Shown here in pieces: positions 3,201 through 59,589 of a DNA stretch of 64,000 nucleotides. The stretch lies in the NCBI GenBank assembly GCA_964385105.1, contig CAYLMU010000003.1, positions 2,470-66,469 of the forward strand, read 5' to 3'. A model generated the notes under the pieces. It had not been told where the DNA came from, did no database searches, and saw only the letters and a list, made by a program, of their open reading frames with translations. The DNA is from an uncultured Candidatus Saccharibacteria bacterium (lineage in GTDB: Bacteria > Patescibacteriota > WWE3 > UBA101185 > UBA10185). Every line of letters begins with the position of its first letter. The stretch's first letter is position 1. The position numbers and the translations under genes were made by a program.

Positions 3201-6200
3201 TATAGAAACTGTTTCACCATATGTTAAATTCGGTTCAAGAGCTGCAAAAATTGCGGCATCAGCTGACACCACATTAGTAAACTCAGTGTCAATTGGTGCA
3301 AGTCCAAGCACCCACACCATGTCGTTGTACGCATACTTAGGCACTTCAGGCAGCGAAGGGGGTACAATTGACAACACTATTGCGCGTATTTTATGGGAAG
3401 GGACTTCACAAGCTTCTACCTCATATGAAGATGTAGGAGGAGGTTGGTGGAGGCTTACCTACTCTGCAACACCTACCGCCAGCACAACAAGTGATTTTGG
3501 AGTGTGGCTTGCCGAGGGCGAAACAATTTATGTAGACGGCTTTATGCTTGAAGAAAAACCAACTGCATCAACTTACACAGACGGCTCACTGGGAGCAGGT
3601 TATTCTTGGAGCGGAACTATTAACGAATCTTCCAGTTCAAGAGCAGCTGCTGACATTGATTACACTGCATCCGGTAATATTGACGCATCTAAAGGAAGTA
3701 TAAGTTTTTGGCTTAAACCCAACTGGGATGGCGATGACGGGGTTGAACACACTTTTTTTGATGTCGATACAGCATCCACATTTAAAATTTATAAAACAAG
3801 CTCAAATGTACTAACATTTACAGACGGAACAAATACAGCTACCACATCAACAACATCCTGGAATAAGGGTGATTGGCATCATATAGTTGCTACCTGGACC
3901 TCAGGTGATATGGATATATATGTAGATGCTTCTGCCGGAACAGATGATTCATATTCGGCACCAACGCTAGGTACTAACTTTTATATTGGGCAAAATAAAT
4001 CAAACACTTCGCATGCCTCAGCTGTAATTTCTAATTTAAGAATTTATGACTCGGTACTTAGCTCAGCACAAATCACTGACTTATATCACTCGAATTTATA
4101 TACTTTTGAACAAGAGTATTTTGTAGAAGCATTTATCGGAGATAAAGGACAAGATCCTATTACGATTTTACATATGGACGAAGCTTACGGTACAACTGTA
4201 CATGATGCATCACAGTATAGAAATGATTTTGGACTATCGGGTGCTTCTTGGGTAGCTGAAAGTTCTGTGACCGGAGGTACACTTAGAACCCGATACATAA
4301 ATTTTGACGGCACCAACGATTACTTAATTAACGAAAACACCGAAGATTTTAGGTTTGGAACTGACTCTTTTTCAATTTCCGGGTGGTTTAGACATCCCAT
4401 AACTGTACCGGATGGAGGAACAACGGACACAATATTAGCTCATTACGATACAACCGGATATAAAATCTATATGAATTCAAGCGGTCAGCTATGTTTTGGT
4501 ATTGATAACGATTCAACATGGTCACCCACCGATACAATTTGTTCTACTATGAGCTATGCTGACTCTACCTGGCATCACTTTAGTGCAGTTAAAACCGGAA
4601 CTTCAAGTATTGCAATTTACATAGATTCAACCCAAGTAGGACAGAACACGTCACTAAGTGCTACTGCTTCTCTATCGCATAATAAACCAATGTATATAGG
4701 TATTGATAGTAATGGTTCTTCTAACCCCTGGGAAGGTGATCTTGATGAAATAAGAATATACTCATACGCCAGATCAGAAGAACAAATTAAAATTGATTTT
4801 GCAGGGTCTTTCGGGGTAGCTTTTGGTACAGGTATTGAAAGTCAGTTGCAAAACGGCCTTGTAGCTCATTGGAAAATGGATGAAAATACAGGTACAACCT
4901 TAAGTGATTCAAGTGGCAATGCCAATAACAGCCAGAACTTTTCAGGAAACACAACGTGGGCACCCGGAAGATATGGTTCAGGATTGTTATTTGACGGCAA
5001 TAATGACGCTGTACTATTCAATGAAACACCTTCAACAGATTTAGGCGCTTTAACAGACTCCTACACAGTGTCCACTTGGTTTAAAACTACTACCAATGCC
5101 TCATCTACAGTTGTATTAGTTAATAAAGGTGTGGGAGCTGCGTCACCGATGAGTTTGGAACTTTCAGATACCGAGGTTGCCCAGTTTAGGATATTTGGTG
5201 GAGGCAACTCTTCATTAGCTGTAGGATCTGCTGCTCTAAACGATGGCAAATGGCATTTAATTACCGGGGTTAGAGATGTTAATGAAGACAAAGTGTTTAT
5301 ATATGTTGATGGTGAATTAGCAGGATTAACTACCGACACATTGACTTCAAGTGCTGCAAATGACAGTCAGCTATCACTCGGTGCAGCAGAAGATCTTTCG
5401 GGTGATTTTACAGGTACAATGGATGACACACGAATATACAATAGAGCCCTTTCTGCGAGTGAGGTTCAAATGCTGTATCAATATTCAGCGGCACCTGTGG
5501 GATATTGGGACTTCAATGTAGGAACCGGTACTGTTGCTCAAGATGTCTCAAATAACAAAAATGATGGTACTTTAACCGGCATGGTGTCGTGGATTCCAGG
5601 CATATTCGGTTCCGGAATAGATACAAATACCGCATCATCCGGTGTGGAAATTACAGACCCTCCCGGCGGAGAACTCGACTTTGATGCTGATGACAGTTTC
5701 ACATGGATGGGATGGGTAAAAACTACAAATATTGGTACTTCAAGTATATTTTTACAAAAAGGAAGAATAGAAAACAGTGTAGCAGGATACCGTGCACGAG
5801 TAGACACTTTCGGTAGAGCAAGTTGCGGCGTTTCAAATGCAGTAGACACAGGTACTACACAAATATCCGGAACCAGTGTAGTTGCAGATGGTATGTGGCA
5901 CCATGTTACTTGTGTTGATATATATACAGGCAACGCATCCCCGAATGATAGAAGACTTTTACTTTATGTGGACGGTGTGTTAGAAAACTCATTAATACAC
6001 TCTGAAGAAATAAGTAATTCAACAGAAAATTTAAACATTGGACATATAAATGCTGCTACGTATTGGCAAGGGCAAATTGATGAAGTTAAAATTTACAACT
6101 ACGCCCGAACTCCCGAAGAAATTATCAAGGATATGAATGCGGGTCATCCGACACCCGGCTCACCCATTGGGTCAGCATTGGGACATTGGAAATTTGATGA

Positions 6201-8325
6201 AGGCTATAGCAATATTGCACACGATTCCGGAATTTTAGGTAAAAACGGGACTATAACTAATGCTACCTGGTCTAATGATGCAAAACTGGGTAAATCTTTA
6301 AATCTTGATGGTACAGGTGATTTTGTGCAAGTAGGTGATGACGACTCTTATTCGTTTGGAAACGGTACTTCAGACAATCCTTTTACAATAAGTGCCTGGA
6401 TTAATAAAAACTCTACAGGAGGAGGCGATATTGTATCAAAATTCACATTAAACGGAGTTCACCTAGAATATAGACTGATTAACCCAAGTGGAAAAGATTT
6501 GGAATTTATTTTGTATGATGATTCGAGCACATCCAATATCGGAAGACGCGCAACATCAAAACTGCCTGACATAAGTGAATGGGTTCACATTGTTGGTACT
6601 TATAATGGGAATGGATCCACAAGCGGTATCAGGTTATACATAAATGGTGTACGCTCAGATGATACAAATATAATCAACGGAACTTATACGGCCATGGAAA
6701 ACACCACAGCGCCACTAGCATTCGGTGCAATTTCAACAGACGGCACACCGTCATCAGATATCCCAGCAAAACTTGACGATATTCGTATTTACACCTCAGA
6801 ATTTTCTCAAAGCCAAATCGACACCTTATATAATCTGGGGTTTGCACAATTATTAGGTGCAACCGGCAGTGATTTATCTGGAAGACCAACAGAATACTGC
6901 CCTCCCGGAGAAGTTCCTGCATGTACTGCACCTATTGCAGAATGGAAACTTGATGAGAACTTAGGTATTAGTGCCTTTGATACAAGTGGAAACGGAATTA
7001 CGGGTACTTTGGGGGGTGACGGTAGCGGGTCGGATATTCCTGTATGGAGACCCGGAAAAGTTGGACAATCCCTACTATTTGATGGCGTTGATGATTTTAT
7101 TAGCATGGGCGACCCTTCGAGCGGGATTTTGGACTTTGGCATTAGTTCGGCGTTCACTATTTCTTTATGGGTTAAAACTGATATTGACGCTATTACAGAT
7201 ACGTATCCTCTAATTATAAGTAAAGAGGGAGGTTCCCCTAGAAATGGTTACAATATACTGGCAAACCTTGCACAATATTCCAATAACTGGACAGGTCAAG
7301 TATTTGCTGGCGGAACGCAATATAACTGTGATAGCCTTGTAGATATAACTGATGGAAAGTGGCATCATCTGGCTTTTAAACACGTTTTCAATCTTTATGC
7401 TACATATACAGACGGGAAAATGACAAATATATGCACACTTACAAATTCAAATATTTCTAATTCAATGAGTTTTCATGTCGGAACACATTCAGTCCCCTTC
7501 ACAGGAAGCTACTTTAACGGTCAGATAGATAACATTCGAGTTTATAATTATACTAGAACCCCCGCACAAACGGCATGGGAATATAATCATGGAGCGCCAG
7601 GTGCCCATTGGAAATTTGATGAGTGCAGTGGTACTACAGCAAATGACTCCTCAGTCCGTAATTACCGGGGCACTATAAACGCCGGCGGTAGCGGCAGCAA
7701 CACAAGTGCTGGAACTTGCGGAGGAAGCCCAGGAACTATGTGGTCAGACGGTGCTGCAGGTAAACACAATGCGAGCCTGGAATTTGACGGTACCAATGAT
7801 TACGTGTCTGTCGGGGATGTAGATTATTTTGATTTGTCTCATATATTCTCAACATATACCTTCACCGGATGGTTCAAGAGATCGTCATTCAACACGCATG
7901 ATGTAATTCTTTCTAAGGATTCTGATATTATGAACAGTGCGGTGCCCGGTTATTCACTATATATAACATCGGATGACGTAGTGAAATTTTCAATAAAAGA
8001 TAAAAACAATAACTTAACCTCTGTAACCGGCTCATCTTTAATAACAGATTCTGAATGGTACCACGTCGCATTAGTGTTTTTCGGTAATGGTACAAACATA
8101 CCAGGAATAAGTTTGTATATTAATGGAAAACTTGAAGGTGAAAATACCGCAGGTGTATGGCTTTACGACTCTTCGAATAACCTTAGCTTCACCATTGGTG
8201 CTGAATCTGACGGCAACCACCCGTTCCATGGACAAATTGACGACGTTCGACTATTTTACTACGGCTTAACACCGGATCAAATTAAAACAGTTATGAATAA
8301 TGGCGCTGTAAACTTTATGCAATAA
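202..8325 (+). CDS. Giant (2707 aa) membrane-anchored surface protein. It has a single N-terminal TM helix followed by at least eight LamG-like (concanavalin A-like lectin/glucanase, Laminin_G_3-type) repeats.
   Basis: Uninterrupted 8.1-kb ORF. N-terminal hydrophobic segment FAFGALVVIVPVAYLLL. Recurrent modules of type W(K/H)(F/M)DE...G...D.SG.GN.G..G...W..G..G.AL.FDG.DD(Y/F)V....D...I(D/N)E(I/V)(R/K)IY(N/S)(R/Y)A(L/R)(S/T)..(E/Q)I, e.g. LDEIRISNTIRYS, DLDEIRIYSYARSEEQI, MDDTRIYNRALSASEVQMLY, IDEVKIYNYARTPEEI, LDDIRIYTSEFSQSQIDTLY, IDNIRVYNYTRTPAQ, IDDVRLFYYGLTPDQI. Thr/Ser/Asn/Gly-rich composition. No internal stops. The exact start is uncertain (202 or nearby Met). Confidence 0.75.
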   Translation: MHMLGKLKTKLAQLLIKILPYATKFVNLLKLFLNKIRHVRKQTVKKLAPFAFGALVVIVPVAYLLLNNTVEAEAGWWVTDTPWQKRHRLNLTNNSSENFAAGNTVSITVNTMQMYSNRELNADCSDLRILYQPNNNTQQELSRHVVFENDGDCTTSDATRVYFPLQANLNSGSSTRDYYVYYSNTQATSPSSQIDAYDISSVNALFACEFRGNANCVNSNGAVSPNTESGAVRFMGSKSALNFDGTGDYASAADSTSLSITDNLTVEAWVKLKQVDVEQTIVGKWDETTGTDNRSYRLYITSGNKFAFEISTDGTSATVTTITGSTTTASKGSWYHVAGVYNANNETLDLYVNGISDNTQVGSAGGEIDDNSSLLYIGGKENTSGIVNTLFMGILDEIRISNTIRYSTNGDAPESSFITDFNTMALYHMDEAGSDPRANGTTLDATTNNNDATLNGPTYVSGMVGIDGPSEFGSHTGANNSATLVDTNASWAPNEWVGYIVNNSTDASHGTITANTVNTITATLAGGEENDFDTGDLYALSPDLGKEVSQSFASRNGVFVEEATTNLIDNPSFENTTYDTSWSEGSGSGVIIATTRATANTGGGTQDITTSKLGGNTPKAVLIIATDTTTDGLATAGMSYSYGAATGTSNQWVSWQNTSDATTSNHRSAIETDNVICNTPPNVTVGAARCAYGQAAFSQFITNGVRLQWDTLKVPASAFYITVVFFAGSDVSAHANSFSLGDTTNGSVTTTAPGFQFDLLYGATTKNGYNVFNGGYGFAHFDGSTITQRAYIHHNRISAQSAWAFVRNDAIAGEIRPDTTGDIDYRAEVTNVSSTGFTIRTTGAGGNNTPFVYLALDFGDTVDSWVGTHSTPTSTGNYSDTGPGFTPQYTLMIPNYVEALNTKADDAKAGSFGFSVIDALNQYSNSYTFQDATSPSNTSSLANNKAVHILSDNQTTSSIQGDFVSFDTAAGWTTNYTAVTGNSKRWPAASVQSITYLTRTIETVSPYVKFGSRAAKIAASADTTLVNSVSIGASPSTHTMSLYAYLGTSGSEGGTIDNTIARILWEGTSQASTSYEDVGGGWWRLTYSATPTASTTSDFGVWLAEGETIYVDGFMLEEKPTASTYTDGSLGAGYSWSGTINESSSSRAAADIDYTASGNIDASKGSISFWLKPNWDGDDGVEHTFFDVDTASTFKIYKTSSNVLTFTDGTNTATTSTTSWNKGDWHHIVATWTSGDMDIYVDASAGTDDSYSAPTLGTNFYIGQNKSNTSHASAVISNLRIYDSVLSSAQITDLYHSNLYTFEQEYFVEAFIGDKGQDPITILHMDEAYGTTVHDASQYRNDFGLSGASWVAESSVTGGTLRTRYINFDGTNDYLINENTEDFRFGTDSFSISGWFRHPITVPDGGTTDTILAHYDTTGYKIYMNSSGQLCFGIDNDSTWSPTDTICSTMSYADSTWHHFSAVKTGTSSIAIYIDSTQVGQNTSLSATASLSHNKPMYIGIDSNGSSNPWEGDLDEIRIYSYARSEEQIKIDFAGSFGVAFGTGIESQLQNGLVAHWKMDENTGTTLSDSSGNANNSQNFSGNTTWAPGRYGSGLLFDGNNDAVLFNETPSTDLGALTDSYTVSTWFKTTTNASSTVVLVNKGVGAASPMSLELSDTEVAQFRIFGGGNSSLAVGSAALNDGKWHLITGVRDVNEDKVFIYVDGELAGLTTDTLTSSAANDSQLSLGAAEDLSGDFTGTMDDTRIYNRALSASEVQMLYQYSAAPVGYWDFNVGTGTVAQDVSNNKNDGTLTGMVSWIPGIFGSGIDTNTASSGVEITDPPGGELDFDADDSFTWMGWVKTTNIGTSSIFLQKGRIENSVAGYRARVDTFGRASCGVSNAVDTGTTQISGTSVVADGMWHHVTCVDIYTGNASPNDRRLLLYVDGVLENSLIHSEEISNSTENLNIGHINAATYWQGQIDEVKIYNYARTPEEIIKDMNAGHPTPGSPIGSALGHWKFDEGYSNIAHDSGILGKNGTITNATWSNDAKLGKSLNLDGTGDFVQVGDDDSYSFGNGTSDNPFTISAWINKNSTGGGDIVSKFTLNGVHLEYRLINPSGKDLEFILYDDSSTSNIGRRATSKLPDISEWVHIVGTYNGNGSTSGIRLYINGVRSDDTNIINGTYTAMENTTAPLAFGAISTDGTPSSDIPAKLDDIRIYTSEFSQSQIDTLYNLGFAQLLGATGSDLSGRPTEYCPPGEVPACTAPIAEWKLDENLGISAFDTSGNGITGTLGGDGSGSDIPVWRPGKVGQSLLFDGVDDFISMGDPSSGILDFGISSAFTISLWVKTDIDAITDTYPLIISKEGGSPRNGYNILANLAQYSNNWTGQVFAGGTQYNCDSLVDITDGKWHHLAFKHVFNLYATYTDGKMTNICTLTNSNISNSMSFHVGTHSVPFTGSYFNGQIDNIRVYNYTRTPAQTAWEYNHGAPGAHWKFDECSGTTANDSSVRNYRGTINAGGSGSNTSAGTCGGSPGTMWSDGAAGKHNASLEFDGTNDYVSVGDVDYFDLSHIFSTYTFTGWFKRSSFNTHDVILSKDSDIMNSAVPGYSLYITSDDVVKFSIKDKNNNLTSVTGSSLITDSEWYHVALVFFGNGTNIPGISLYINGKLEGENTAGVWLYDSSNNLSFTIGAESDGNHPFHGQIDDVRLFYYGLTPDQIKTVMNNGAVNFMQ

Positions 8326-23405: not shown

Positions 23406-23570
23406 ATGAACAAGTCAGGCAAAGTTCGTTTTATTCGTCGTAGTGTGATTTCCTTGGCCATAGGGTGGTCAGTTTCCAGAATTTGGTTCGTTCCTCCTGT
23501 TACGGAAAGGGATCTCGTCGTCGTGCTGGTAATGTTGGTGATCATCTACATCCTGCATTACGCAGAATAA
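23406..23570 (+). CDS. Small hydrophobic ORF (54 aa; MNKSGKVRFIRRSVISLAIGWSVSRIWFVPPVTERDLVVVLVMLVIIYILHYAE), GC-elevated.
   Basis: SD-like GGGAG 8 nt upstream. Two predicted TM segments. Below the ORF-track cutoff. Speculative. Confidence 0.3.
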   Translation: MNKSGKVRFIRRSVISLAIGWSVSRIWFVPPVTERDLVVVLVMLVIIYILHYAE

Positions 23571-23796
23571 ATAGAAGATTTCACCACTAACCCAAACCCC
23601 AACTGGTTAACTACCAAGTTTTCCATGAGGGGTTTTCTTTTTATAAACCTTTTCCCAGTGATAAGATATTTATTGGATACATGGATAAATATTTTCCAAT
23701 ATCACTCCATGCTATCCGCCATAACACTGTAAATTTTAAATATGTAAAAATTCCATAAAAAAAGCTCGGGAGTCTCACTTTTATGCTAGCTAATTT

Positions 23797-43869: not shown

Positions 43870-45809
43870 TTATTAATTCCTTCATCTCAGCATTATCATT
43901 TTATATAATTCCAGTTTTTATTGGTTATGCGATTGTTAGATTAAAAAATGTGCCTTTTAAAGATGAACTATCATCCGAGAAAACGTTAACCGTAAAAATC
44001 CTTGATCAATTTAGGTATTTTACATATGGCTCATTAGGAATTTATGTAATTTTTTGTGCTGCATTGTTGGGCAAAAATAATGGTTTGGGTATAGAGTTTA
44101 CTCATGCAACAATATTCATCACACTCTTATTTTTGATATATATACCTTTGTTAATAGTAGGTCTTATACCCTATTTCAAAAACATTAAGAATTTGAACAT
44201 CTTTGACATCCTCGACATTTTATTTTTAATCATGATTGCATTATTAACATATGCAATATGGAGATGGGATAGCGGCATTAATACCACCCTAAATTGGGAC
44301 ATATATCACCATCAAACACTTGCAACGCTAATCCAAGGTAACAATTTTGACATTGTTACTTCTAATTTATCCGATTCATTTCAATTCGATGGCTACTCTA
44401 CCCTGTTTCACACACAAGTCGCTATAACCCAAAAAATATTCAATCCTGATTTATTGGCATACTGGTGGTTTATTGAACTCTTTCATCTATTTACTACAGT
44501 AGCCGTCTCCTTTGCCCTGGCATTTGCTGTTACAAAAAAAAGATGGGTTTCATATATAGGAGCTATTATAGGTGCATTAATCTTTGAATCAGCTGTATCA
44601 TACACTTCGCTATTTCTCATACCTCAAAATCTCGCTGCGACCGTTACAGTGGGCTACATAGCATCAATAATCAATAGATATGCCCAATCACGGGATACTT
44701 CAAAGATTCTAACAATTGACTTTGTAGTTTATATTTTTTATATAATGCTCAGCCATATAGTAATTGGAACATTAGGTGTATTTTTAGTGGCATTTTCAAA
44801 AGTATATTTGTTGCTTAAAAGTATAAACAAAGGGAAATCCATTCAAGGAGTATTATTTGTCTTGTCATTTATATTGTTGATAATAGTACCTTTGATTGCT
44901 CAACAGTTTGACTTGAACAATATAAACCGTGGGGAAGCTGAATTCTTTAATTACACACTTGAAGAAAAGTACAATTTAATGAAACAATTTTATGGTTTCA
45001 GTCTTGTATTTCTACCACTTGGTTATATATATGCGATTAGGCAAAAAAATCATTCTTATAATCTGCTTTTAATCATTACAAACGGTTTACTAGCATTAAT
45101 TATTGCGCACATCCCTTACTCTCTTAAATTCTTTACACTAGGGAGATTCACAGTTCATACTGTTATGGCATTAGGGGTATGGCTAATAATCCAACACTTT
45201 AATAAATATATAAAATTTTTAAGTTTAAAACTAATTTATTTAACATTCAGTGCGATTTTTGTAATTAATATTTCGGATTACAAGCAAGTACCTGCCTACA
45301 AAGAAATTTCTACACACGTAACACAAAATGAGATAGACGCAGCTAATTTTTTGAAATCTAATTACACCGGACACAATATACTTTTAGTATCAGATCCAGC
45401 TACTATGCATATTCTAGAGGGGTTAAGCGGTATAAACTCTCCCGGTGGTTCATATACAAGCCTTCACACCCGAGAAGTGCTTTCAGATGTCTACTTTATA
45501 CGCGACGAACAAATCACCCAAAAGTTGTTTCAAATAAGAGATGGTGTCGTAGATACTGAACCTGACAAGATTTTATTTGTTATAAGCGGTAGATTCAGCA
45601 AATGGCAACTAGGCGGTAACGTTGACAAGTTTGGTATACATTGGAACATATGGTCCCCTTTTGACTTGTCATCAAAGGATTTAGAAGACCACGATTTTAT
45701 TTATTATTTGAGAGAAAACTTAAGATATAATGAAGTGTTTAGAAATGAGGGCTTGATTATATTTGAAATAGAAAAACCTCCTATTACTACAGTTGTACAG
45801 AGTCAATAA
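43866..45809 (+). CDS. Polytopic membrane protein (~13 TM) with a C-terminal extracytoplasmic domain. Putative GT-C-type (polyprenyl-phosphate-sugar-dependent) glycosyltransferase.
   Basis: Topology plus an acidic DE pair in the first predicted extracytoplasmic loop (KNVPFKDELSS), as in GT-C enzymes. Genomic neighbourhood with GT2 and GT4 genes. The family call is an inference. Confidence 0.4.
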   Translation: MIINSFISALSFYIIPVFIGYAIVRLKNVPFKDELSSEKTLTVKILDQFRYFTYGSLGIYVIFCAALLGKNNGLGIEFTHATIFITLLFLIYIPLLIVGLIPYFKNIKNLNIFDILDILFLIMIALLTYAIWRWDSGINTTLNWDIYHHQTLATLIQGNNFDIVTSNLSDSFQFDGYSTLFHTQVAITQKIFNPDLLAYWWFIELFHLFTTVAVSFALAFAVTKKRWVSYIGAIIGALIFESAVSYTSLFLIPQNLAATVTVGYIASIINRYAQSRDTSKILTIDFVVYIFYIMLSHIVIGTLGVFLVAFSKVYLLLKSINKGKSIQGVLFVLSFILLIIVPLIAQQFDLNNINRGEAEFFNYTLEEKYNLMKQFYGFSLVFLPLGYIYAIRQKNHSYNLLLIITNGLLALIIAHIPYSLKFFTLGRFTVHTVMALGVWLIIQHFNKYIKFLSLKLIYLTFSAIFVINISDYKQVPAYKEISTHVTQNEIDAANFLKSNYTGHNILLVSDPATMHILEGLSGINSPGGSYTSLHTREVLSDVYFIRDEQITQKLFQIRDGVVDTEPDKILFVISGRFSKWQLGGNVDKFGIHWNIWSPFDLSSKDLEDHDFIYYLRENLRYNEVFRNEGLIIFEIEKPPITTVVQSQ

Positions 45810-45920
45810 ATTAACTTAACAGTTTTTTTGCAAAAAAATAGCCGACTATATGATGAAAACTTCCCCAAAGGGTCGCAATCTTTCAAATAGTCGGCTAAAA
45901 GGCCTATACGGCAATCGGGC

Positions 45921-46811
45921 TTACTGAGAAGGCAAAGGCCAGTTGTCGACCGAAGTCCACTTCTCGCCTTGCCAAAACTGCACTTGGCCATTGTCAACCA
46001 CAATGCGAACATCGTAGTGACCATCCCAGTCGGCAGGGAATGCGAGTTGATACACGCCACCGCCTTCGAGGATTTGACATTCGCCATTTACACAAACAGT
46101 GCCGTTAAAGCCCTGCGCAAACCAACCGAGTCCCAAAGGACTATTGCCGGCGTTTGCCACAGTGTATGGATCGGGGTTAACCTCATTGCTGGCAGCAAGA
46201 TCGCGCCAAAGGTCAAACTCCAAAATCCCTGATCCACTCACGGTCATCTGTGTCGGGTGCGGCCACTGAATCTTCAAATCATCACCATCACTGGTCTGCC
46301 AATTGCAGAAAACAGCAGTCCAGGGCAAGTTCTTCAGATTCGTCGCCTGCCATACCCGTCCGCAATCATCGACTTCATAGTCATCGGAAGGTAGGGTGAC
46401 ATCTGTCGCCCACTCTCCGAATCCCTCACCACCAGGCGTGTAGGTGAATACCTCAGTCGCCATGATGCTGTTGAAATCGGTCAAGAGGATCGGGCCAGTA
46501 CCTCCGCTGGTGGCAGTGGTTGTTACTGGTTCTGTAACTGCTGGTTCTGGTGTTTCAGCAGGCCGAGTCAGAAAAATTGTTTCGCCTTCCTCAGTAACGA
46601 TTTCAGTAACGACACGTGTCACTTCAACCACTGGCTGCTCACCTCCCCCAGTCAAGTTGTTGAACAGTTGTGCCAAATTTTGGCCACCAGCCTCAAGACC
46701 GGAAGTGCTTGCTCCAGAAACAAAACCAACGGTAAGTGGCCAACAAACAAAAGCGATAAACAACATAAGAATTACAAAACCGATCAACTTTCCTACGGTT
46801 ACTCGTGTCAT
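45921..46811 (-). CDS. N-terminally membrane-anchored hypothetical protein (296 aa) with TPEP-type linker. GC-rich.
   Basis: TM VTVGKLIGFVILMLFIAFVCWPL. Linker TRPAETPEPAVTEPVTTTATSGG. Trp/Gly/Asp-rich C-terminal domain. Elevated GC. Confidence 0.55.
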   Translation of the reverse strand: MTRVTVGKLIGFVILMLFIAFVCWPLTVGFVSGASTSGLEAGGQNLAQLFNNLTGGGEQPVVEVTRVVTEIVTEEGETIFLTRPAETPEPAVTEPVTTTATSGGTGPILLTDFNSIMATEVFTYTPGGEGFGEWATDVTLPSDDYEVDDCGRVWQATNLKNLPWTAVFCNWQTSDGDDLKIQWPHPTQMTVSGSGILEFDLWRDLAASNEVNPDPYTVANAGNSPLGLGWFAQGFNGTVCVNGECQILEGGGVYQLAFPADWDGHYDVRIVVDNGQVQFWQGEKWTSVDNWPLPSQ

Positions 46812-46858
46812 GTCATATCCTCCAATATTGAGCTACTGTTTAAATGGTTTCTGTTTAA

Positions 46859-47299
46859 CTAACGAAGAAACTGAAAGGTCAAAACGTACTTGATTCCTTC
46901 CCACACTCCGTCTTTGCTACCGTTGCTGGAATTAGTTGGAGGATTTTTACCTGCTAAATCTGCATTTTTGACACGCGGATTAGCTTTGAACTCCTTACCG
47001 AACTCATTCTCAACATCTGTAGTAACATCAACGTTTTTTTGACCTAGGAAATTTTCAAGCTCGTCCGAAATTACATCCGAAACGCCATCAAATCTCTCCA
47101 AGTCACCCACCTTGGATTCGCCCCAAGAAGGGAGCGTAAGGGAACTGATCAATGCCTTGCATAAGTCCTCAATCGTTACCCAACCCTTATTCAGACATAC
47201 ATCTTTCGCTGCACGCGAAAGTTCCAAGTCTGGAATGGATTGGATTGATGTTGTAAGTCCATAACGCACACCAACTACTAATTTGCCTGTTACTGCCAT
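46859..47299 (-). CDS. Hypothetical protein (~147 aa). Likely start MAVTGKL at 47299 (SD GGAGG 8 nt upstream); the ORF track extends to 47359.
   Basis: GC-rich. RBS read from the reverse complement of 47297-47316. Confidence 0.5.
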   Translation of the reverse strand: MAVTGKLVVGVRYGLTTSIQSIPDLELSRAAKDVCLNKGWVTIEDLCKALISSLTLPSWGESKVGDLERFDGVSDVISDELENFLGQKNVDVTTDVENEFGKEFKANPRVKNADLAGKNPPTNSSNGSKDGVWEGIKYVLTFQFLR

Positions 47300-47533
47300 G
47301 GTTTTTACCTCCATTTTTTTTGCCGTATATTTTTTTGTCAAATTCATCAATATGCCCAAAAATCAGGCAAATTGCTGATACATAAACTCGCTAAAAGTTC
47401 ATTTATCAACAATCTGACTATAAATCTCTATTTGGGCAATAATAGAAACACACGGTTAATGTGAGAATTCTATACTACAATAACTGATTTGTCAACACTA
47501 TAGGGTTTAATATATTAGCCACACCTTCCAAAA

Positions 47534-47572
47534 TAAAAAAAGAAGCTGACGGAAATAAATCATCAGCTTCTT
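47534..47572 (-). terminator. Rho-independent terminator (minus-strand orientation; stem + T8).
   Basis: agaagctg...cagcttct 8-bp stem. Reverse complement is followed by tttttttt. It would terminate a minus-strand transcript originating between 47580 and 48100, where there is no ORF. Confidence 0.45.
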
Positions 47573-48097
47573 AGGATGCTACCCCAACTCCTTACCGTTA
47601 ATATCCGTGGGTTTACATCTCCTCTCATGTATTTAAATACCTTCTCAATGACTTCCGTGTCTATCCAAATAGACTCTATTATGCTCTTTCACATCATGTC
47701 CAACTGTTAACACAAAGATGAAGCAACTTTTCTACCTCTTCATCAAAAAAAAGGACTGACATATTGATAATCCTCAGAAGAATTATGGGTACGTTTAACT
47801 AAAACCGGCATCTCACACACTCCTTATACACTCACCAGTAAATTTTTAAGCAGCATAAAACCACATAAACCTTTTCATTGCACACATTAACTATTCTTCT
47901 TACACACCTCTAACACAACTCAAAAACTTCTTTAAAACACCATCATTTGTCATAGCCGTCTGCTAAAGTGGCTCAAATTTCAATGTACATCGCTTGTTTA
48001 GCAAAAATATTTTGATAAAGTGATAATATTCCTGCTTCTCCTGTCCAGAAGCATGATCTTATAACTTAGTCATGTTTTTTATTTGACTAATGTTCCG

Positions 48098-48151
48098 TAA
48101 AAAACGCTCTGTGGTTGTCGCACTGAGTCGCTCCTTATGGAGCGTTTTTTA
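48098..48151. terminator. Bidirectional Rho-independent terminator after the yacL-like gene.
   Basis: aaaaaacgctc...(loop)...gagcgtttttt: A-run, 7-bp stem, T-run. Confidence 0.55.
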
Positions 48152-48260
48152 TAAATCGCAATTAACGTTAATTTATAGAAAGCCTTCACAAATTAGCCCA
48201 AAATAGTTTTATCCCAAGCATCGCTCAAAAAGTATCTTGTCTCTTGCTCCTAAAACCTGC

Positions 48261-49208
48261 TTACCCATTTAACTCACCAAACACCATTTTTCCCGCCGGA
48301 GTTTGTATTAACTTAGAGACTGTAACTAAAACCTCTTCTTCAACCTTGTTTGAAGCAGCACTAACAACAACCATTGTTCCATCTTCCAAATACCCAACTC
48401 CTTGGCCCGGTTCTTTACCTTCATGCACGATTTTTATGTGCAATTGCTCCCCCGGTACAAATACCGGTTTTATTGCTTCAGCCAGTAGATTTAAGTTTAA
48501 AACTTTTATTCCCGATACTTTTGCTACTTTGTTTAAATTGAAATCCAAAGTCATTATGCTTAAGTTGTATTTTTTTGCGAGATTAACAAGCTCTTTGTCT
48601 ACTCCTTGTTCGTTGTCTTTGTTACGCATTATATGTACTTTGGTAGCTTTTTTAAGTTCACCAATTAAATCAAGCCCCCTGCGACCTTTGCTTCGTTTTA
48701 GGTCATTTTTGTTGTCGGCCAGCAAATGAAGTTCGTCTATCACAGAATCCGGTATAACCAAAATACTTTGAATAAATCCTGCCTGAGCAATTCCAAGAAT
48801 TCGACCATCAATTAATACCGATGTATCAATTAAAACCCCATCTTTTAGCTTAGATTTTAGTTTATCTTCTTTTTCTTTCTTTTTGGATTTGGAATCTTTT
48901 TTGCGCTGATCTCTCGCATCTTCCATTTTTTTCATGTATTGATTCCAAAAGTCTCCCACCAGTTTTTGTATGGTGGCTGAAACTAAAGCTTCAAGCCAAT
49001 CTTTTATTATAAAAAAATATTTTGGAACGAGGTAAAATCCAATTAAGCCTGTAGCCACGGATATTATGGTCTCAGCAACAAACGGTACACCAAAAAGCGG
49101 ATACTCATTGAAAAATATGGAATTTGAAAAAATCAGCCCCGCCGTAAACATTATTGCGGCTATTGATAATCTAACTATTAAATTAAATGTTCGTTCATTT
49201 TTGTTCAT
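48261..49208 (-). CDS. yacL: PIN/TRAM-domain membrane protein (YacL-like).
   Basis: N-terminal TM helices. PIN region GVLIDTSVLIDGRILGIAQAGF...VIPDSVIDEL. C-terminal TRAM-like beta domain. Immediately upstream of radA, as is commonly the case. Confidence 0.75.
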   Translation of the reverse strand: MNKNERTFNLIVRLSIAAIMFTAGLIFSNSIFFNEYPLFGVPFVAETIISVATGLIGFYLVPKYFFIIKDWLEALVSATIQKLVGDFWNQYMKKMEDARDQRKKDSKSKKKEKEDKLKSKLKDGVLIDTSVLIDGRILGIAQAGFIQSILVIPDSVIDELHLLADNKNDLKRSKGRRGLDLIGELKKATKVHIMRNKDNEQGVDKELVNLAKKYNLSIMTLDFNLNKVAKVSGIKVLNLNLLAEAIKPVFVPGEQLHIKIVHEGKEPGQGVGYLEDGTMVVVSAASNKVEEEVLVTVSKLIQTPAGKMVFGELNG

Positions 49209-55120: not shown

Positions 55121-55237
<117 letters not shown>

Positions 55238-55380
55238 ATTACCTACCAGTATTTAAATTTCAAAAAGTACTCAATTTGTGAGCAAAAGCGATGGACCCAG
55301 TAAACCCGAAATGGGCAACCGGACCCTCGATTTTGCTCACAAAAGAACTACGCTCTGACAAGACGTAGTATGCTGATAAA

Positions 55381-55425
55381 GAAAAACAATCTGCAGGCCT
55401 GAAAGGCCGAAGCCGTTTTTCGTAT
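55381..55425. repeat. 45-nt structured repeat, copy A, in the 23S-5S spacer (gaaaaacaatctgcaggcctgaaaggccgaagccgtttttcgtat).
   Basis: 44/45 identical to 58943-58987. Outer 7-bp stem GAAAAAC/GTTTTTC enclosing GGCCTTCGGCC-type inner hairpins. Confidence 0.7.
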
Positions 55426-55932
55426 CAGCATACGAAGCTGTACTCTAAAAACTGAACAAAACTTTGATTAAGCCCAATTACTAAAAGTCTTAATTTAAAG
55501 ATGCGCACACATTAGTACTGCTTAGCTAAACACATTACTGTGCGTACACTTGCAGCCTATCAACCTGGTAATCTCCCAGGAGGTACGTCCGATAAATCGG
55601 AAGAATTCTAATCTTGGGATGGGCTTCGTGCTTAGATGCTTTCAGCACTTATCCCGACCGAACGTAGCTACCCAGCGATGCCACTGGCGTGACAACTGGA
55701 ACACTAGAGGTTCGTCCGCTCCGGTCCTCTCGTACTAGGAACAGCCTCCCTCAGAATTCATACGCTCGTTGTGGAAAGAGACCGAACTGTCTTACGACGT
55801 TCTGAACCCATCTAACGCGCCTCTTTAATGGGCGAACAGCCCAACCCTTGGAACCTGCTTCAGCTCCAGGATGAGACGAGACGACATCGAGGTGCCAAAC
55901 ACCGCCGCCGCTATGAACGCTCGAGCGGTATT

Positions 55933-55965
<33 letters not shown>

Positions 55966-56456
55966 AAGTTCCGAGCTTACCATAAAGCATTCGGAAGATC
56001 ATTAAGACCTACTTTCGTAACTGCGCGACTTGTGTGTCTTGCAGTAAAGCTCCCATATACCTTTACGCTTACAGCGCCATTTCCATCGGCGCTAAGGGAA
56101 CCTTTGTGCTCCTGCGTTACTTTTTAGCAGGAAACCGCCCCAGTTAAACTGCCCATCAAGCATTGTCCTCGTACCCGATAAGGGCACACAGTAAGACTCA
56201 TAATATTAGAAGAGAGGTGTTACATTGGCGACTAGCTCACCTAAGCGAGCTAATCTCCCTCCTACGCTATACAACTAATATCACTTGTCAATGCCAGACT
56301 ACAGTAAAGCTCCACGGGGTCTATTTGTCCAACAACGAGTAACCGGCATCTTCACCGGTAGTTCAATTTCACCGAGTCCGTGATTAAGAGAGTGCTCAAG
56401 TCGTTACGCCTTTCGTGCGGGCCGGAACTTACCCGGCAAGGGATTACGCTTGTTAA

Positions 56457-57184
56457 TTCTTCATCTATATTAAATAGACTTTGAGTAACCTTCCCAGTGT
56501 TACTCCTGCATGTCGCCATGCAGACGCCACTATATCTTCATGCACTAGCATGTTTGGCGTATAGTGTGTGAGGATTCAAGAAACTTTGGAGTAACCTTAC
56601 GATTCATAAGACTACATAATAATGCAATCTCATGTATACCGTTAAAATTAAGGTGTTTCCTTTGTTCAATCAATTCCATAATTTCGCAGAATAATTGAAA
56701 ATCATTTTGCTTACTTGTTCTTAATTTGTGTGCCCTAAAAAAAGGTACTATTTTTGAATTAAGATCTGTAATGGATCTCACACAATAGCGATAAAGGTCT
56801 TCGTTGTGATTATCAAACCTTCTGTTTAAATATACTTTTCCACATCCAAAAAAGTTTTGGAAAATGTAAAGAACATTTTTACTCTTTGCTGATTGTGTGA
56901 CTATGAACTCTGGAAATACCTGCCAACCGGTTTTGCTCGTGGAGTTTTTTAGTATGCTTACTGTAAAAGCACCCTCCCCATCTACAAACCCAATTATCCA
57001 ACCAATGGTTTCTTGTCTTTCCTGCTGATTGTCCGCACTTGCTGCATTTTCACTCAACACATCCGAATATTATCCGAACATGTTAAGTAGCACAAGATTC
57101 TTTATTCTACTTTTAATAGACACTACCTTTTTTAGGTAGACGGAGTTTCCAGCATATAGCCAAATTTTACTATGGCGGCGCGAT
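56457..57184 (-). mobile_element. Group I-type intron in 23S rRNA (insertion near the E. coli 1917-1923 region, helix 69-71 area) carrying a homing-endonuclease ORF. Boundaries approximate.
   Basis: 23S exon homology (…ACGGCAGCAGTAACTATAACTGTTCTA) stops at ~57190 and resumes at ~56456 (CGTAATCCCTTGCCGGGTAAGTTCC…). An intervening ~730 nt contains a LAGLIDADG ORF. Confidence 0.6.
56545..57060 (-). CDS. LAGLIDADG-family homing endonuclease (single-motif type) encoded within the 23S intron.
   Basis: IGWIIGFVDGEGAF matches the LAGLIDADG motif. 171 aa, typical for homodimeric I-CreI-like enzymes. Confidence 0.8.
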   Translation of the reverse strand: MLSENAASADNQQERQETIGWIIGFVDGEGAFTVSILKNSTSKTGWQVFPEFIVTQSAKSKNVLYIFQNFFGCGKVYLNRRFDNHNEDLYRYCVRSITDLNSKIVPFFRAHKLRTSKQNDFQLFCEIMELIEQRKHLNFNGIHEIALLCSLMNRKVTPKFLESSHTIRQTC

Positions 57185-58033
57185 TCACCATAGAACAGTT
57201 ATAGTTACTGCTGCCGTTCACCCGAGCTTCGACCAAAAGCTCATTCACAATTGCACAAGTGCAAAAGTAAGATCACCTCCAGCTTTAACTTACGGGCACT
57301 GGGCAGGCGTCGGCCCCTATACATCCCCTTACGGGTTTAGCAGAGACCTGTGTTTTTGATAAACAGTCGCTTGAACCATTTTTGTGCCCCCTACGTATCT
57401 CTACGCAGGGCATCCTTTTCCCTAAGTTACGGATGTAATTTGCCTAGTTCCTCGATCACGGTTCTCTCGTTCGCCTTGGTATTCTCTACCTGTCTACCTG
57501 TGTCGGATTGCGGTACGGATATCATAGGATCTCCCTAGAAGATTTTCTTGGAAGCTTAACGCAGCTAAATCAGCGGTATTACCCGCTTTTCCACCGGCTC
57601 GTATAAACGCCTGTGCGGATTTGCCTACACAGACTGACTTGCCTTCTGGACTGGAATCCTTAACCAGCCTAGCCTATCAAACTCCGTCCCTCCATTGGTA
57701 ATAATGATCAAATGATAGTGCAGGAATATTAACCTGCTGTCCATCGGTTACGCCCTTCGGCCTCACCTTAGGACCGACTTACCCTCCGTTGACTGACATA
57801 GCGGAGGAAACCTTAGACTTCCGGCGGGGTGGGTTTTCACCACCCTCTCGTTACTCATGCCCACATTCTCACTTGATGCCGCTCCAGCATACCTCACGAT
57901 ACACCTTCAGTGCAGACATCAATGCTCCCCTACCATCCATTAAAATCTAAAAGAAATTAATGAATCCACAGCTTCGGTTCTTTGCTTTAGCCCCGTTAAA
58001 TCATCGGCGCGAAACCGTTGAACTAGTGAGCTG

Positions 58034-58076
<43 letters not shown>

Positions 58077-58645
58077 AGCTGTCTAAACAGTTTCACTTCC
58101 TTACCCACTAAGCAAAGATTAGGGACCTTATCTGATGGTCCGGGTTGTTTCCCTCTCGTACCAGGAACTTGCTCCCTAGTACTGACTCCTAAGTTGAAGA
58201 TTTGCGCATTCGGAGTTTGGTAAGAATGGGTACGCTTGCGCGCCCCAATTCTTTTCAGTATCTCTACCTCACAAATCCATAATAACTTAGGGCTATACCT
58301 AAATATATTTCGGGGAGAGCCAGCTATCGCCGAGTTCGATAAGCGTTTCACCTCTTACCACAAGTCATCCCAGCATTTTTCCGCATACACGGGTTCGGTC
58401 CTCCGCCTGTCTTTCGACAGGTTTCAACCTGCTCATGGTAAGCTCACTCGGCTTCGGGTCTAATAACATATACTAAAGCGCCCTTTTAAGACTCGCTTTC
58501 GCTGCGTCTACACAACTGAGTTGCTTAAACTTGCATATGTTATTAACTCGCGGGCTCATTCTTCAATAGGCACAACATCACACCACAAGGGTGCTCTGTC
58601 AGCTTGTTTGCATACGGTTTCAGGTTCTATTTCACTCCCCTAACA

Positions 58646-58677
<32 letters not shown>

Positions 58678-58942
58678 TGTTCACTATCGGTGTCCTCATG
58701 TATTTAGCCTTAGCTGATGGTCCAGCTGTATTCACACAGGGTTTCACGTGCCCCATGCTACTCTGGATAAACCCAAGAAGGCATTTTTGTTTCGAATACA
58801 GGGCTATTACCTGCTATGGCGCAGCTTTCCAGCTGGCTTCTTCTACAAAAATACTTTTTTACTTCTTTGTCATTCAAGATGACGTAGGGCTTTCCTAACC
58901 CCCTAATCTTAAAACTTTGTTTCAAAATATTTGTGCAATTAA

Positions 58943-58987
58943 GAAAAACAATCTGCAGGCCTAAAAGGCCGAAGCCGTTTTTCGTAT
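58943..58987. repeat. 45-nt structured repeat, copy B, inside the 23S rRNA domain I (candidate intervening sequence/expansion).
   Basis: gaaaaacaatctgcaggcctaaaaggccgaagccgtttttcgtat. Lies after the GAGTAGCGGCGAGCGAAAAGG...AGCCCAAACC block, where E. coli has no corresponding sequence. Confidence 0.7.
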
Positions 58988-59512
58988 TGCAAAATTTTTA
59001 AGACTTGGGTTTGGGCTCATTCCTTTTCGCTCGCCGCTACTCAGGAAATACCTAATGGTATCTTTTCCTCCAGTTACTAAGTTGTTTCAGTTCACTGGGT
59101 ACCCATCTATGCACCTATGTTCGCCCGAAGGCAAATTTCAGCACATGATCACCTCATATTACTATGGATGGAGTTTCCTCATTCGGAGATTCCCGGTTAA
59201 TAGCGCTTCTTGTCAGCTCACCGAGACTTAACGCAGACTTGCACGTCCTTCATCGGCACAAGGACCCAAGGCATCCACCGTATGCATTAGTATCTTTAAT
59301 ATCAAGACGAATTGAACTTAAATCTAGTTTTGTTCAGTTTTCAAAGTACATGCTACGTTTTACATTTTCAAAAACTGTCCTCGGGCATAGCCCTGCGGAT
59401 TGTTTTTTCAAATTGTAAAACTTCGCCACAATTAAGTGACTTGTTGGCAATTCGTCGCTTTCGCTCCTATTGCACATCAATTCACTAAACTCACTTCATT
59501 CGTTAAGTGACT

Positions 59513-59589
59513 TGGTGGACCCGGCGGGATTCGAACCCGCGACCCCTGCAGTGCAAATGCAGTGCTCTAGCCAACTGAGCTACAGGCCC
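59513..59589 (-). tRNA. tRNA-Ala(UGC) with encoded CCA, immediately upstream of the 23S rRNA.
   Basis: Reverse complement GGGCCTGTAGCTCAGTTGGCTAGAGCACTGCATTTGCACTGCAGGGGTCGCGGGTTCGAATCCCGCCGGGTCCACCA. G3:U70 present. Anticodon loop UUUGCAC gives UGC. Confidence 0.8.

Follow-up and report, generated by a model that had tools for sequence, protein, structure and literature searches.

A predicted plus-strand small RNA gene convergent with yacL in WWE3-type bacteria

The region between yacL and a short gene without a Pfam family was analysed in a 64-kilobase (kb) stretch of contig CAYLMU010000003.1, referred to here as the window and derived from a candidate division WWE3 bacterium (Patescibacteria). 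The minus-strand gene order is ribosomal protein S1, ClpC, RadA, and the PIN-TRAM protein YacL (48261-49208), whose best named homologues are annotated as WWE3. The gap extends from 47300 to 48260 (960 base pairs, bp), between yacL and the gene for a protein of 146 amino acids (aa). A sequence-only reading of this DNA had assigned 166 aa to that neighbour. The true start is the ATG at 47299 behind a GGAGGT sequence, so that the protein is 146 aa long and the gap begins at 47300. The gap's right-hand fifth is likely to be a real small RNA gene with its own promoter, which is read from the plus strand (48028-48151) and converges on yacL. The features of the locus are collected in Table 1.

Six-frame translation of 47465-48171 (707 bp) gave no stop-to-stop open reading frame (ORF) of at least 60 codons. 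By this criterion the segment is the longest ORF-free run in the window and exceeds any run inside ribosomal RNA (rRNA). The next-longest runs are 409 bp within the 23S rRNA and 382 bp at 23415-23796. The earlier description of the gap as ORF-free is correct at this threshold, but the statement that no frame exceeds about 25 codons was too strong. Small ORFs of 44 aa (47576-47710, plus strand), 38 aa (48090-48206, plus strand), 36 aa (48079-48189, minus strand), and 30 aa (47372-47464, plus strand) are present in the region.

Table 1. Coordinates of the features in and around the gap between the 146-aa gene and yacL (window numbering)
Feature	Positions	Strand	Details
Small RNA promoter (predicted)	47981..48021	+	CAATG 47981-47985; -35 TTGTTT 47994-47999; 16-nucleotide (nt) spacer; -10 TAAAGT 48016-48021
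Predicted small RNA transcript, ~124 nt	48028..48151	+	5' end placed from the -10 element, 3' end from the U-run
Hairpin P1	48030..48056	+	UCCUGCUUCU / AGAAGCAUGA; 7-nt loop CCUGUCC (48040-48046)
Linker	48057..48065	+	UCUUAUAAC; near-invariant YUUAU; invariant columns T100, A102, T103 (alignment A4)
Hairpin P2	48066..48090	+	UUAGUCA / UGACUAA; sequence and length vary by lineage
Hairpin P3, intrinsic terminator	48099..48150	+	A6CGCUCUGUGG (48099-48114) with UUAUGGAGCGU6 (48135-48150)
3' untranslated tail of yacL	48152..48260	-	Stop codon 48261-48263; runs into the shared terminator
G-poor, C/A-rich (plus strand) spacer	47573..47970		Neither conserved nor structured; tiny ORFs only
Intrinsic terminator	47530..47572	-	AAGAAGCUGA / UCAGCUUCUU, then U5AU4
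Promoter-like site of the 146-aa gene	47467..47495	-	TTGACA, 17 nt, TAGAAT; 11/12 positions
146-aa protein, left neighbour	46859..47299	-	ATG 47299; ribosome binding site GGAGGT 47307-47312; no Pfam family

Nineteen distinct loci were compared, namely the window and 18 WWE3-type relatives with YacL proteins 82% down to 44% identical. The loci were taken from GTDB genomes, Joint Genome Institute (JGI) metagenomes, and exact-protein look-ups, the last of which supplied most of the WWE3 relatives; protein scans of genome and metagenome contigs returned mostly other phyla among the matches listed. The closest relative available (L001, from a Logan assembly) has a YacL that is 82% identical and the same gene order, S1-clpC-radA-yacL-gap-small protein-larger protein. 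Within the gap, blastn aligned the window with L001 in three pieces only: 48155-47919, the block after the yacL stop codon, and 47510-47465. The first piece is 79.5% identical overall, and its core at 48030-48155 is nearly identical.

The small RNA element was found with nhmmer in every WWE3-type yacL locus retrieved (E values of 1e-25 to 1e-42). It immediately follows the yacL-strand operon in all of these loci, and its orientation relative to that operon does not change. Its promoter, P1, and P3 are conserved where the clpC-radA-yacL block ends, on the opposite strand, with the promoter of L173 as the exception. A covariance model built from the 19 loci (R1) scores 66-113 bits on them and 113.4 bits at the window copy, which is the single copy in the window. 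Beyond the 19, no match to R1 was obtained in 174 loci searched (about 1.4 Mb), including other groups of the Candidate Phyla Radiation (CPR) and other phyla; the outgroup yacL loci came from Saccharibacteria, Gottesmanbacteria, Curtissbacteria, Parcubacteria, and non-CPR phyla. The other flank of the small RNA differs by lineage. It may be an orphan ORF, a small ribbon-helix-helix gene, or toxin-antitoxin pairs, and in other cases it codes for a metallophosphatase or for a large protein of unknown kind. In L003 and L169 additional genes follow yacL, and the small RNA is still found at the 3' end of the operon.

The predicted promoter of the element is recognisable. Its order in the alignment is a conserved CAAT, TCGCTTGTTA, 16-17 nt, and TAnnnT, and the -35 sequence TTGTTT sits inside the conserved block TCGCTTGTT. 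The pattern GCTTG(T/C)(T/A)N (GCTTGTTA) followed by 16-17 nt and TAnnnT is present at 18 of the 19 loci, so that a predicted promoter of its own, as expected for an independent small RNA gene, precedes the RNA in nearly all of them. TAnnnT ends 6-11 nt before P1 (17 nt in L008 and L083). The invariant columns of alignment A4 in this region are GCTTG and the T, the A, and the final T of TAnnnT. Elsewhere in the window the combined -35/-10 motif has 7 matches versus 5.9 expected, and the promoter motif is therefore not a general signature there.

The window copy of the RNA folds with a minimum free energy (MFE) of -35.1 kcal/mol (z = -5.26), and none of 200 shuffled sequences folds as well. The P1 stem is GCUUCU/AGAAGC, extended at its base, and the C-U-G and the last C of its loop are invariant. 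P2 is predicted in 16 of the 19 homologues and is absent in L006, L007, and L168. Variants of P2 include UUAGCC/GGCUAA in L001 and the pair UUCCAUC/GAUGGAA versus UUCCGUC/GACGGAA in L008 and L083. P3 is a 15-bp, G·U-extended stem on the plus strand that is followed by U6 (-20.6 kcal/mol); on the minus strand the hairpin amounts to -15.9 kcal/mol and is also followed by U6. The arms at 48098-48109 and 48140-48151 are complementary at 12 of 12 positions, and the apical part UUGUCGC...GUCGCUCC (48115-48134) is conserved. The sequence-only reading had taken 48098-48151 for a bidirectional terminator that delimits the gene-free region. A terminator is indeed present, but it is the 3' domain (P3) of the small RNA itself rather than an outer boundary.

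The paired columns of P1 and P3 were examined across the 19 sequences. Canonical pairs occupy 93.6% of 532 cells, and 12 of the 28 pairs are changed on both sides; values this high were not obtained in any of 500 column shuffles. With the partners slid by 1-3 columns, pairing falls to 44-56%. For P1 alone (helix 1), 87% of the cells pair and 5 of 10 pairs are changed on both sides, such as the U-A pair that becomes A-U in L162 and L163. For P3 (helix 2), 96.5% of the cells pair and 7 of 15 pairs are compensatory, as in one position with G-C in 10 and A-U in 7 sequences and another with U-A in 9 and C-G in 7. P3 also contains wobble pairs, U·G in 19/19 and G·U in 16/19. The compensatory changes in P1 and P3 are found on one defined strand. 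The paired columns hold 81 G·U or U·G combinations versus 6 A·C or C·A combinations, which identifies the plus strand as the one that carries the structure. When the same pairs were read on the yacL strand, the fit was worse: 79.5% were canonical, the P3 stem fell from 15 to 10 pairs, and RNAalifold gave -14.9 kcal/mol versus -19.8 kcal/mol for the plus strand. This reading was rejected.

One-nucleotide insertions or deletions in the P1 loop (L003 and L007) and the loss of the entire P2 hairpin show that conservation tracks helices and not codons, and there is thus no conserved reading frame in the small RNA. A noncoding RNA of about 500 nt on the minus strand had been proposed for the gap from the sequence alone, with covariation across homologous loci as one check. 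A structured noncoding RNA is supported by this comparison. It lies on the plus strand, however, is about 125 nt long, and is confined to 48028-48151.

The conserved block could also be a bidirectional terminator together with the 3' untranslated region (UTR) of yacL, conserved for termination or messenger RNA (mRNA) stability of the clpC-radA-yacL operon, with no separate RNA. The element is always positioned at the 3' end of the yacL-strand operon, even where genes are inserted (L003 and L169), and a hairpin flanked by an A-tract and a U-tract is the typical bidirectional design. As in bidirectional terminators between convergent genes, an A-tract, a GC-rich stem, and a U-tract lie between yacL and the small RNA. 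However, P1 and the promoter lie beyond the terminator as seen from yacL and are nevertheless conserved to the same degree as P3. The ratio of 81 G·U to 6 A·C combinations favours the opposite strand, and only the 10 outer pairs survive on the yacL strand. P3 is asymmetric, unlike such terminators, with five extra pairs (four of them G·U) on the plus strand only, and its 20-nt apical part is conserved down to 44% identity of YacL. Identity of about 97% would also be unusual for a terminator where the adjacent protein is 82% identical. A terminator and UTR with no separate RNA is accordingly judged quite improbable, and an independent small RNA gene is the preferred interpretation.

A second pairing is also possible in the RNA. 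The 3' strand of P3 (GGAGCG) can pair with the middle strand CGCUCC to give a compact hairpin directly before the U-run, and this alternative helix is pairable in 92.9% of cells versus 29-57% in slid controls. Covariation in the alternative helix is not beyond shuffles (266/500). The two mutually exclusive partners of GGAGCG, the 5' strand in the long P3 or CGCUCC, would fit the expression platform of a cis-acting leader such as a riboswitch or an attenuator. The absence of covariation beyond shuffles speaks against a leader, as does the gene order: 18 of the 19 loci have no same-strand gene after the RNA, which instead meets the end of yacL or of an inserted gene head-on. A same-strand gene downstream is found in L166 only (1/19 loci). 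The riboswitch or leader identity is therefore largely refuted, and a cis-acting leader is the least probable of the explanations considered here.

Comparison of the whole window with Rfam 15 (4227 models) at the gathering threshold returned only rRNA and transfer RNA (tRNA). These models cover RNase P, riboswitches, and candidate motifs from comparative genomics, among others. At E ≤ 10, the segment 47200-48400 gave only terminator-like chance matches of 10-19 bits, versus thresholds of 38-382 bits, and at E ≤ 5 no match overlapped the small RNA in seven homologous loci. The Rfam scan suggested with the sequence-only reading has thereby been carried out, and no catalogued family corresponds to the RNA in the gap. 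The predicted small RNA is a previously uncatalogued family and, among the loci sampled, is restricted to WWE3-type genomes. The exact P1 pattern has 0 matches in IMG/VR viral contigs. The literature searched held nothing pertinent on regulatory small RNAs of WWE3 or CPR bacteria and nothing useful on YacL.

The closest known architecture is that of trans-encoded bacterial small RNAs that combine a 5' seed hairpin with a middle hairpin and a Rho-independent terminator; RsaE/RoxS of Firmicutes, with its pyrimidine-rich loops, is an example. As is generally known for small RNAs of this type, the present RNA has a predicted promoter of its own, a length in the range of about 90-140 nt, no ORF, and two to three hairpins, the last of which is the terminator. 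The pyrimidine-rich conserved apical loop (CCUGUCC) and the lineage-wide, one-sided synteny are further likenesses. On the other hand, the RNA has no sequence or covariance-model likeness to any Rfam family, and no target was found in the window scan. It also differs from this type in its strongly conserved terminator hairpin, its invariant tandem-wobble segment, and its apical CGC...GUCGC motif. The tandem-wobble segment and the CGC...GUCGC motif point more to protein binding than to simple seed pairing.

A likeness to the signal recognition particle (SRP) RNA (4.5S), 6S RNA, and the tRNA-like ends of transfer-messenger RNA (tmRNA) is limited to general properties: single copy, clade-wide occurrence, a predicted promoter and terminator of its own, and a length of about 100 nt. 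The small RNA has neither the GNRA-capped helix 8 with symmetric and asymmetric loops of SRP RNA nor the long closed helix with a central bubble of 6S RNA. The Rfam models for SRP, 6S, and tmRNA do not match even at E ≤ 10 in the window or at E ≤ 5 in the seven loci. A partial tmRNA match was noted elsewhere, at 4911-4982 of L083 (minus strand). It covers 72 nt and scores 31.5 bits (threshold 47; E = 4.6e-9), and it is on the strand of the small RNA gene, some 530 nt upstream. ARAGORN returned neither a tRNA nor a tmRNA at this position.

Rather than an ordinary regulator, the RNA might be a clade-wide housekeeping RNA of WWE3, either as a dedicated partner, substrate, or inhibitor of the PIN-TRAM protein YacL or as a radically divergent stand-in for a universal RNA such as 6S or SRP RNA. 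Such a role would explain the adjacency to yacL in all 19 sampled lineages despite the reshuffled other flank, the unusually constrained promoter region, and the invariant P3 wobbles with the repeated GUCGC motif that resembles a protein-binding site. We regard this proposal as doubtful. That the RNA stays next to yacL hints at a link but could equally reflect the shared terminator.

In the proposed mechanism, transcription of the small RNA would start at the sigma-70-type promoter, and the RNA would be released at P3; read from the other side, P3 would also stop the yacL transcript. The local hairpin CGCUCC-UUAU-GGAGCG would be kinetically favoured, form first, and trigger termination, after which the RNA would refold into the 15-bp P3. 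The released RNA would act in trans on an mRNA or a protein. Likely contacts would be its constant surfaces that are single-stranded or irregular: the CCUGUCC loop of P1, the linker with YUUAU, the CUGUGG/UUAUGG segment of tandem wobbles, and the CGC...GUCGC motif at the apex. The spacer at 47573-47970 occupies a slot with the small RNA gene on one side and, on the other, the minus-strand terminator and then the promoter of the 146-aa gene. In its architecture the RNA resembles trans-acting small RNAs, and our confidence in any specific function is much lower than that in the gene.

Several points weigh against an independent small RNA gene. The transcription, ends, and abundance of every copy of the RNA are predictions from sequence. 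L173 is without a recognisable -10 element. Invariant positions, namely the three apical pairs of P3 and most of the P1 stem, say nothing about structure. The 19 sequences share ancestry, and the shuffle control used with them carries no correction for phylogeny. The conserved position may reflect a good terminator kept at the end of the operon. Finally, when the P1 loop was compared with all translation-start regions in the window, the best duplex reached -13.0, whereas the 1st percentile of the background is -15.0.

The remainder of the gap is bounded by the minus-strand terminator at 47530-47572. Its arms at 47540-47549 and 47563-47572 form 10 bp around a 13-nt loop (-18.9 kcal/mol, minus strand). 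In L001 the corresponding place is likewise taken by a terminator, which has another stem, GAGCUGGUA / UAUCAGCUC plus U8 (-24.5 kcal/mol), and follows the orphan ORF of that locus. The two terminators predicted from the sequence alone are thus both real: a G+C-containing stem-loop followed by a U-run is found at 47530-47572 on the minus strand and at 48099-48150 on the plus strand, with energies of -18.9 and -20.6 kcal/mol, respectively.

The composition of the spacer between the small RNA gene and this terminator was compared with the rest of the window. G makes up 9.4% of 47600-47960, which is the 1st percentile of 361-nt windows; the poverty in G claimed earlier (about 8%) is real but slightly less extreme, and a lower value (7.5%) occurs inside a gene at 26384. 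The plus strand of the spacer has 26% C and 10% G, and the minus strand has 10.3% C. On the minus strand, 47573-47970 has a GC skew of +0.43. The third-codon-position skew is +0.18 for minus-strand genes and -0.205 for plus-strand genes, corresponding to a replication-type strand bias of about 0.2. Six intergenic stretches elsewhere in the window range from -0.19 to +0.16, and the two flanks of the gap have values of +0.19 and +0.37. Measured against the third-position and intergenic values, the spacer skew is roughly double the background strand bias; it is real but not unique.

Neither conservation nor fold energy beyond shuffles, as would mark a structured long noncoding RNA, was found for 47573-47970. 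Folding of the minus strand gives z = +1.24, and a fold at least as good is reached by 92 of 100 shuffles; for the plus strand, z is +1.55. The plus strand, with an MFE of -40.4 kcal/mol over 398 nt, is less structured than shuffled sequence. The spacer has no blastn match in L001, and its global alignment is near random; the flanks are about 80-97% identical. Short conserved patches are present at 47919-47975. Three candidate short ORFs of the minus strand are preceded by a Shine-Dalgarno-like motif (22 aa from 47811, 22 aa from 47762, and 21 aa from 47628); none of them has conservation support. Internal repeats within the gap are short chance pairs only. The spacer is probably variable, lineage-specific, and weakly constrained DNA.

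These data bear on the transcript originally proposed, a G/U-rich and C-poor minus-strand RNA of 400-500 nt with a function of its own that would run from the yacL terminator to the terminator at 47534-47572. That terminator is canonical, and because its position is conserved in L001, minus-strand transcription through the spacer is plausible. The depletion of C (10.3%), at about twice the background skew, and the conservation of the patches at 47919-47975 would also be in keeping with such an RNA. Its interior, however, cannot be aligned with L001 and folds no better than shuffled sequence (z = +1.24; 92/100). The sole internal promoter-like site is weak (47702-47673, 9/12 positions), and the small RNA gene of the plus strand, with its promoter, takes up the upper 180 bp. 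There is no sign that a minus-strand spacer transcript has a conserved function, and a functional RNA of this kind appears unlikely.

A decayed protein gene, mentioned as an option from the sequence alone, or a decayed accessory cassette between the small RNA gene and the terminator was also considered. The same slot is coding in relatives: L001 has a 113-aa ORF, a gene for a ribbon-helix-helix protein of about 45 aa is present in L002, L004, L008, L082, and L083, and toxin-antitoxin pairs occupy the slot in L162 and L169. Retention of the terminator and the three ORFs of 21-22 aa with Shine-Dalgarno-like motifs would be compatible with decay. Yet no remnant was detected in 47570-47970 when all open frames of at least 40 aa from 14 related loci were compared with it by tblastn. 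The only significant matches in this search were spurious translations of the conserved small RNA DNA. At E ≤ 0.01 the 113-aa ORF of L001, an orphan, matches nothing in the database but a 112-aa copy of itself with 99% identity, and a counterpart of the ribbon-helix-helix protein is absent from the entire window. A skew of 0.43 is also not expected of a recently inactivated gene, as whole coding sequences here have values of about 0.16-0.2 (C 14-16% and G 20-22% on the coding strand). Decay of a former gene or cassette is consequently held to be a minor possibility.

The C-rich, G-poor plus strand of the spacer might act as a Rho-loading zone that halts read-through or antisense transcription before the small RNA promoter. 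The base composition (26% C, 10% G) and the lack of structure (z = +1.55; MFE of -40.4 kcal/mol) are as expected for such a zone, and a plus-strand promoter-like site at 47489-47516 (10/12 positions) is a possible source of transcription. Negative skew is also found upstream of the RNA gene in most relatives, but there it is mostly explained by genes on the yacL strand. A Rho-loading zone is considered rather improbable, and the spacer is best treated as variable DNA beside the small RNA gene.

Additional observations were made on the genes around the element. A conserved protein of about 45-50 aa is encoded beyond the small RNA promoter in L002 (4190-4321), L004 (6251-6403), L082 (5399-5518), L083 (4629-4742), and L008 (2920-3033). 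By its sequence pattern alone (…KVKTTIALDKTIKKLAQIYALQNDMTLQELVE…) it is judged to be ribbon-helix-helix-like. MazE-PIN or PemK toxin-antitoxin pairs are found around yacL in L169, L171, and L162. The surroundings of yacL and the small RNA are a hotspot of such accessory modules. L006, L007, and L008 carry Saccharimonadales/Saccharibacteria labels, yet, in contrast to the remaining Saccharibacteria loci of the sample, they have the small RNA and a full-length WWE3-type YacL (45-47% identical). The taxonomic labels of these three loci may be wrong. A 27-nt noncoding block right after the yacL stop codon (48230-48256, minus strand; GGTTTTAGGAGCAA..GAGACAAGATACT) is kept in L001.

To the left of the gap, the promoter-like site at 47467-47495 implies a 5' UTR of about 160 nt (47300-47460) for the 146-aa gene. 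The promoter block of this gene (AACCCTATAGTGTTGACAAATCAG...TAGAAT; 47465-47510) is kept in L001, and the segment 47457-47513 (minus strand) is also kept in the distant L008 (about 3736-3792; 77% over 57 nt). The conservation of 47457-47513 suggests a regulatory module. A perfect 10-nt inverted repeat at 47280-47289 and 47364-47373 (AATTTGCCTG / CAGGCAAATT) brackets the ribosome binding site and start codon of the 146-aa gene, and within the leader of about 160 nt it could occlude translation initiation. The second gene to the left encodes 296 aa (45921-46811) and also has no Pfam family; in its protein, a hydrophobic segment at the N terminus is combined with a linker rich in Thr, Pro, and Glu. 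The counterparts of the 146- and 296-aa proteins in L001 are 162 and 374 aa long. The two genes (45803-47299) have 40-53% G+C versus about 35% for their neighbours and may be a foreign or specialised surface-protein pair.

Further features were recorded elsewhere in the window. The stretch at 23415-23796 (382 bp) is the second-longest ORF-free stretch outside rRNA and has no Rfam match at E ≤ 1; it could be another uncatalogued RNA or a regulatory region. The 23S rRNA match at 55492-59300 (minus strand) spans 3809 nt versus a 2925-nt model, which implies about 880 nt of insertions. An ORF at 56545-57060 in a 23S insertion encodes a 171-aa LAGLIDADG homing endonuclease (Pfam E = 6.5e-24), and no group I intron model exceeds the Rfam gathering threshold. 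Insertions of this intron type in rRNA are known from CPR bacteria. The minus-strand order over 55122-59589 is a tRNA (59516-59589), 23S, and 5S, with no 16S upstream and protein ORFs from 59873, so that the 16S gene appears to lie apart from the rRNA operon. A single plus-strand ORF at 202-8325 encodes 2707 aa, and giant proteins often occur in CPR genomes.

The conspicuous, skewed, gene-free gap next to yacL offers a lesson for annotation, since such a gap can hide a small gene on an unexpected strand while the rest is variable DNA. Patescibacteria (CPR bacteria) are uncultured and have tiny genomes. The predicted small RNA, conserved across a class-level lineage, would offer a concrete and easily tested way into RNA-based regulation in these organisms. 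It adds a conserved promoter motif for the WWE3 group and raises a possible functional link to the uncharacterised PIN-TRAM nuclease YacL.

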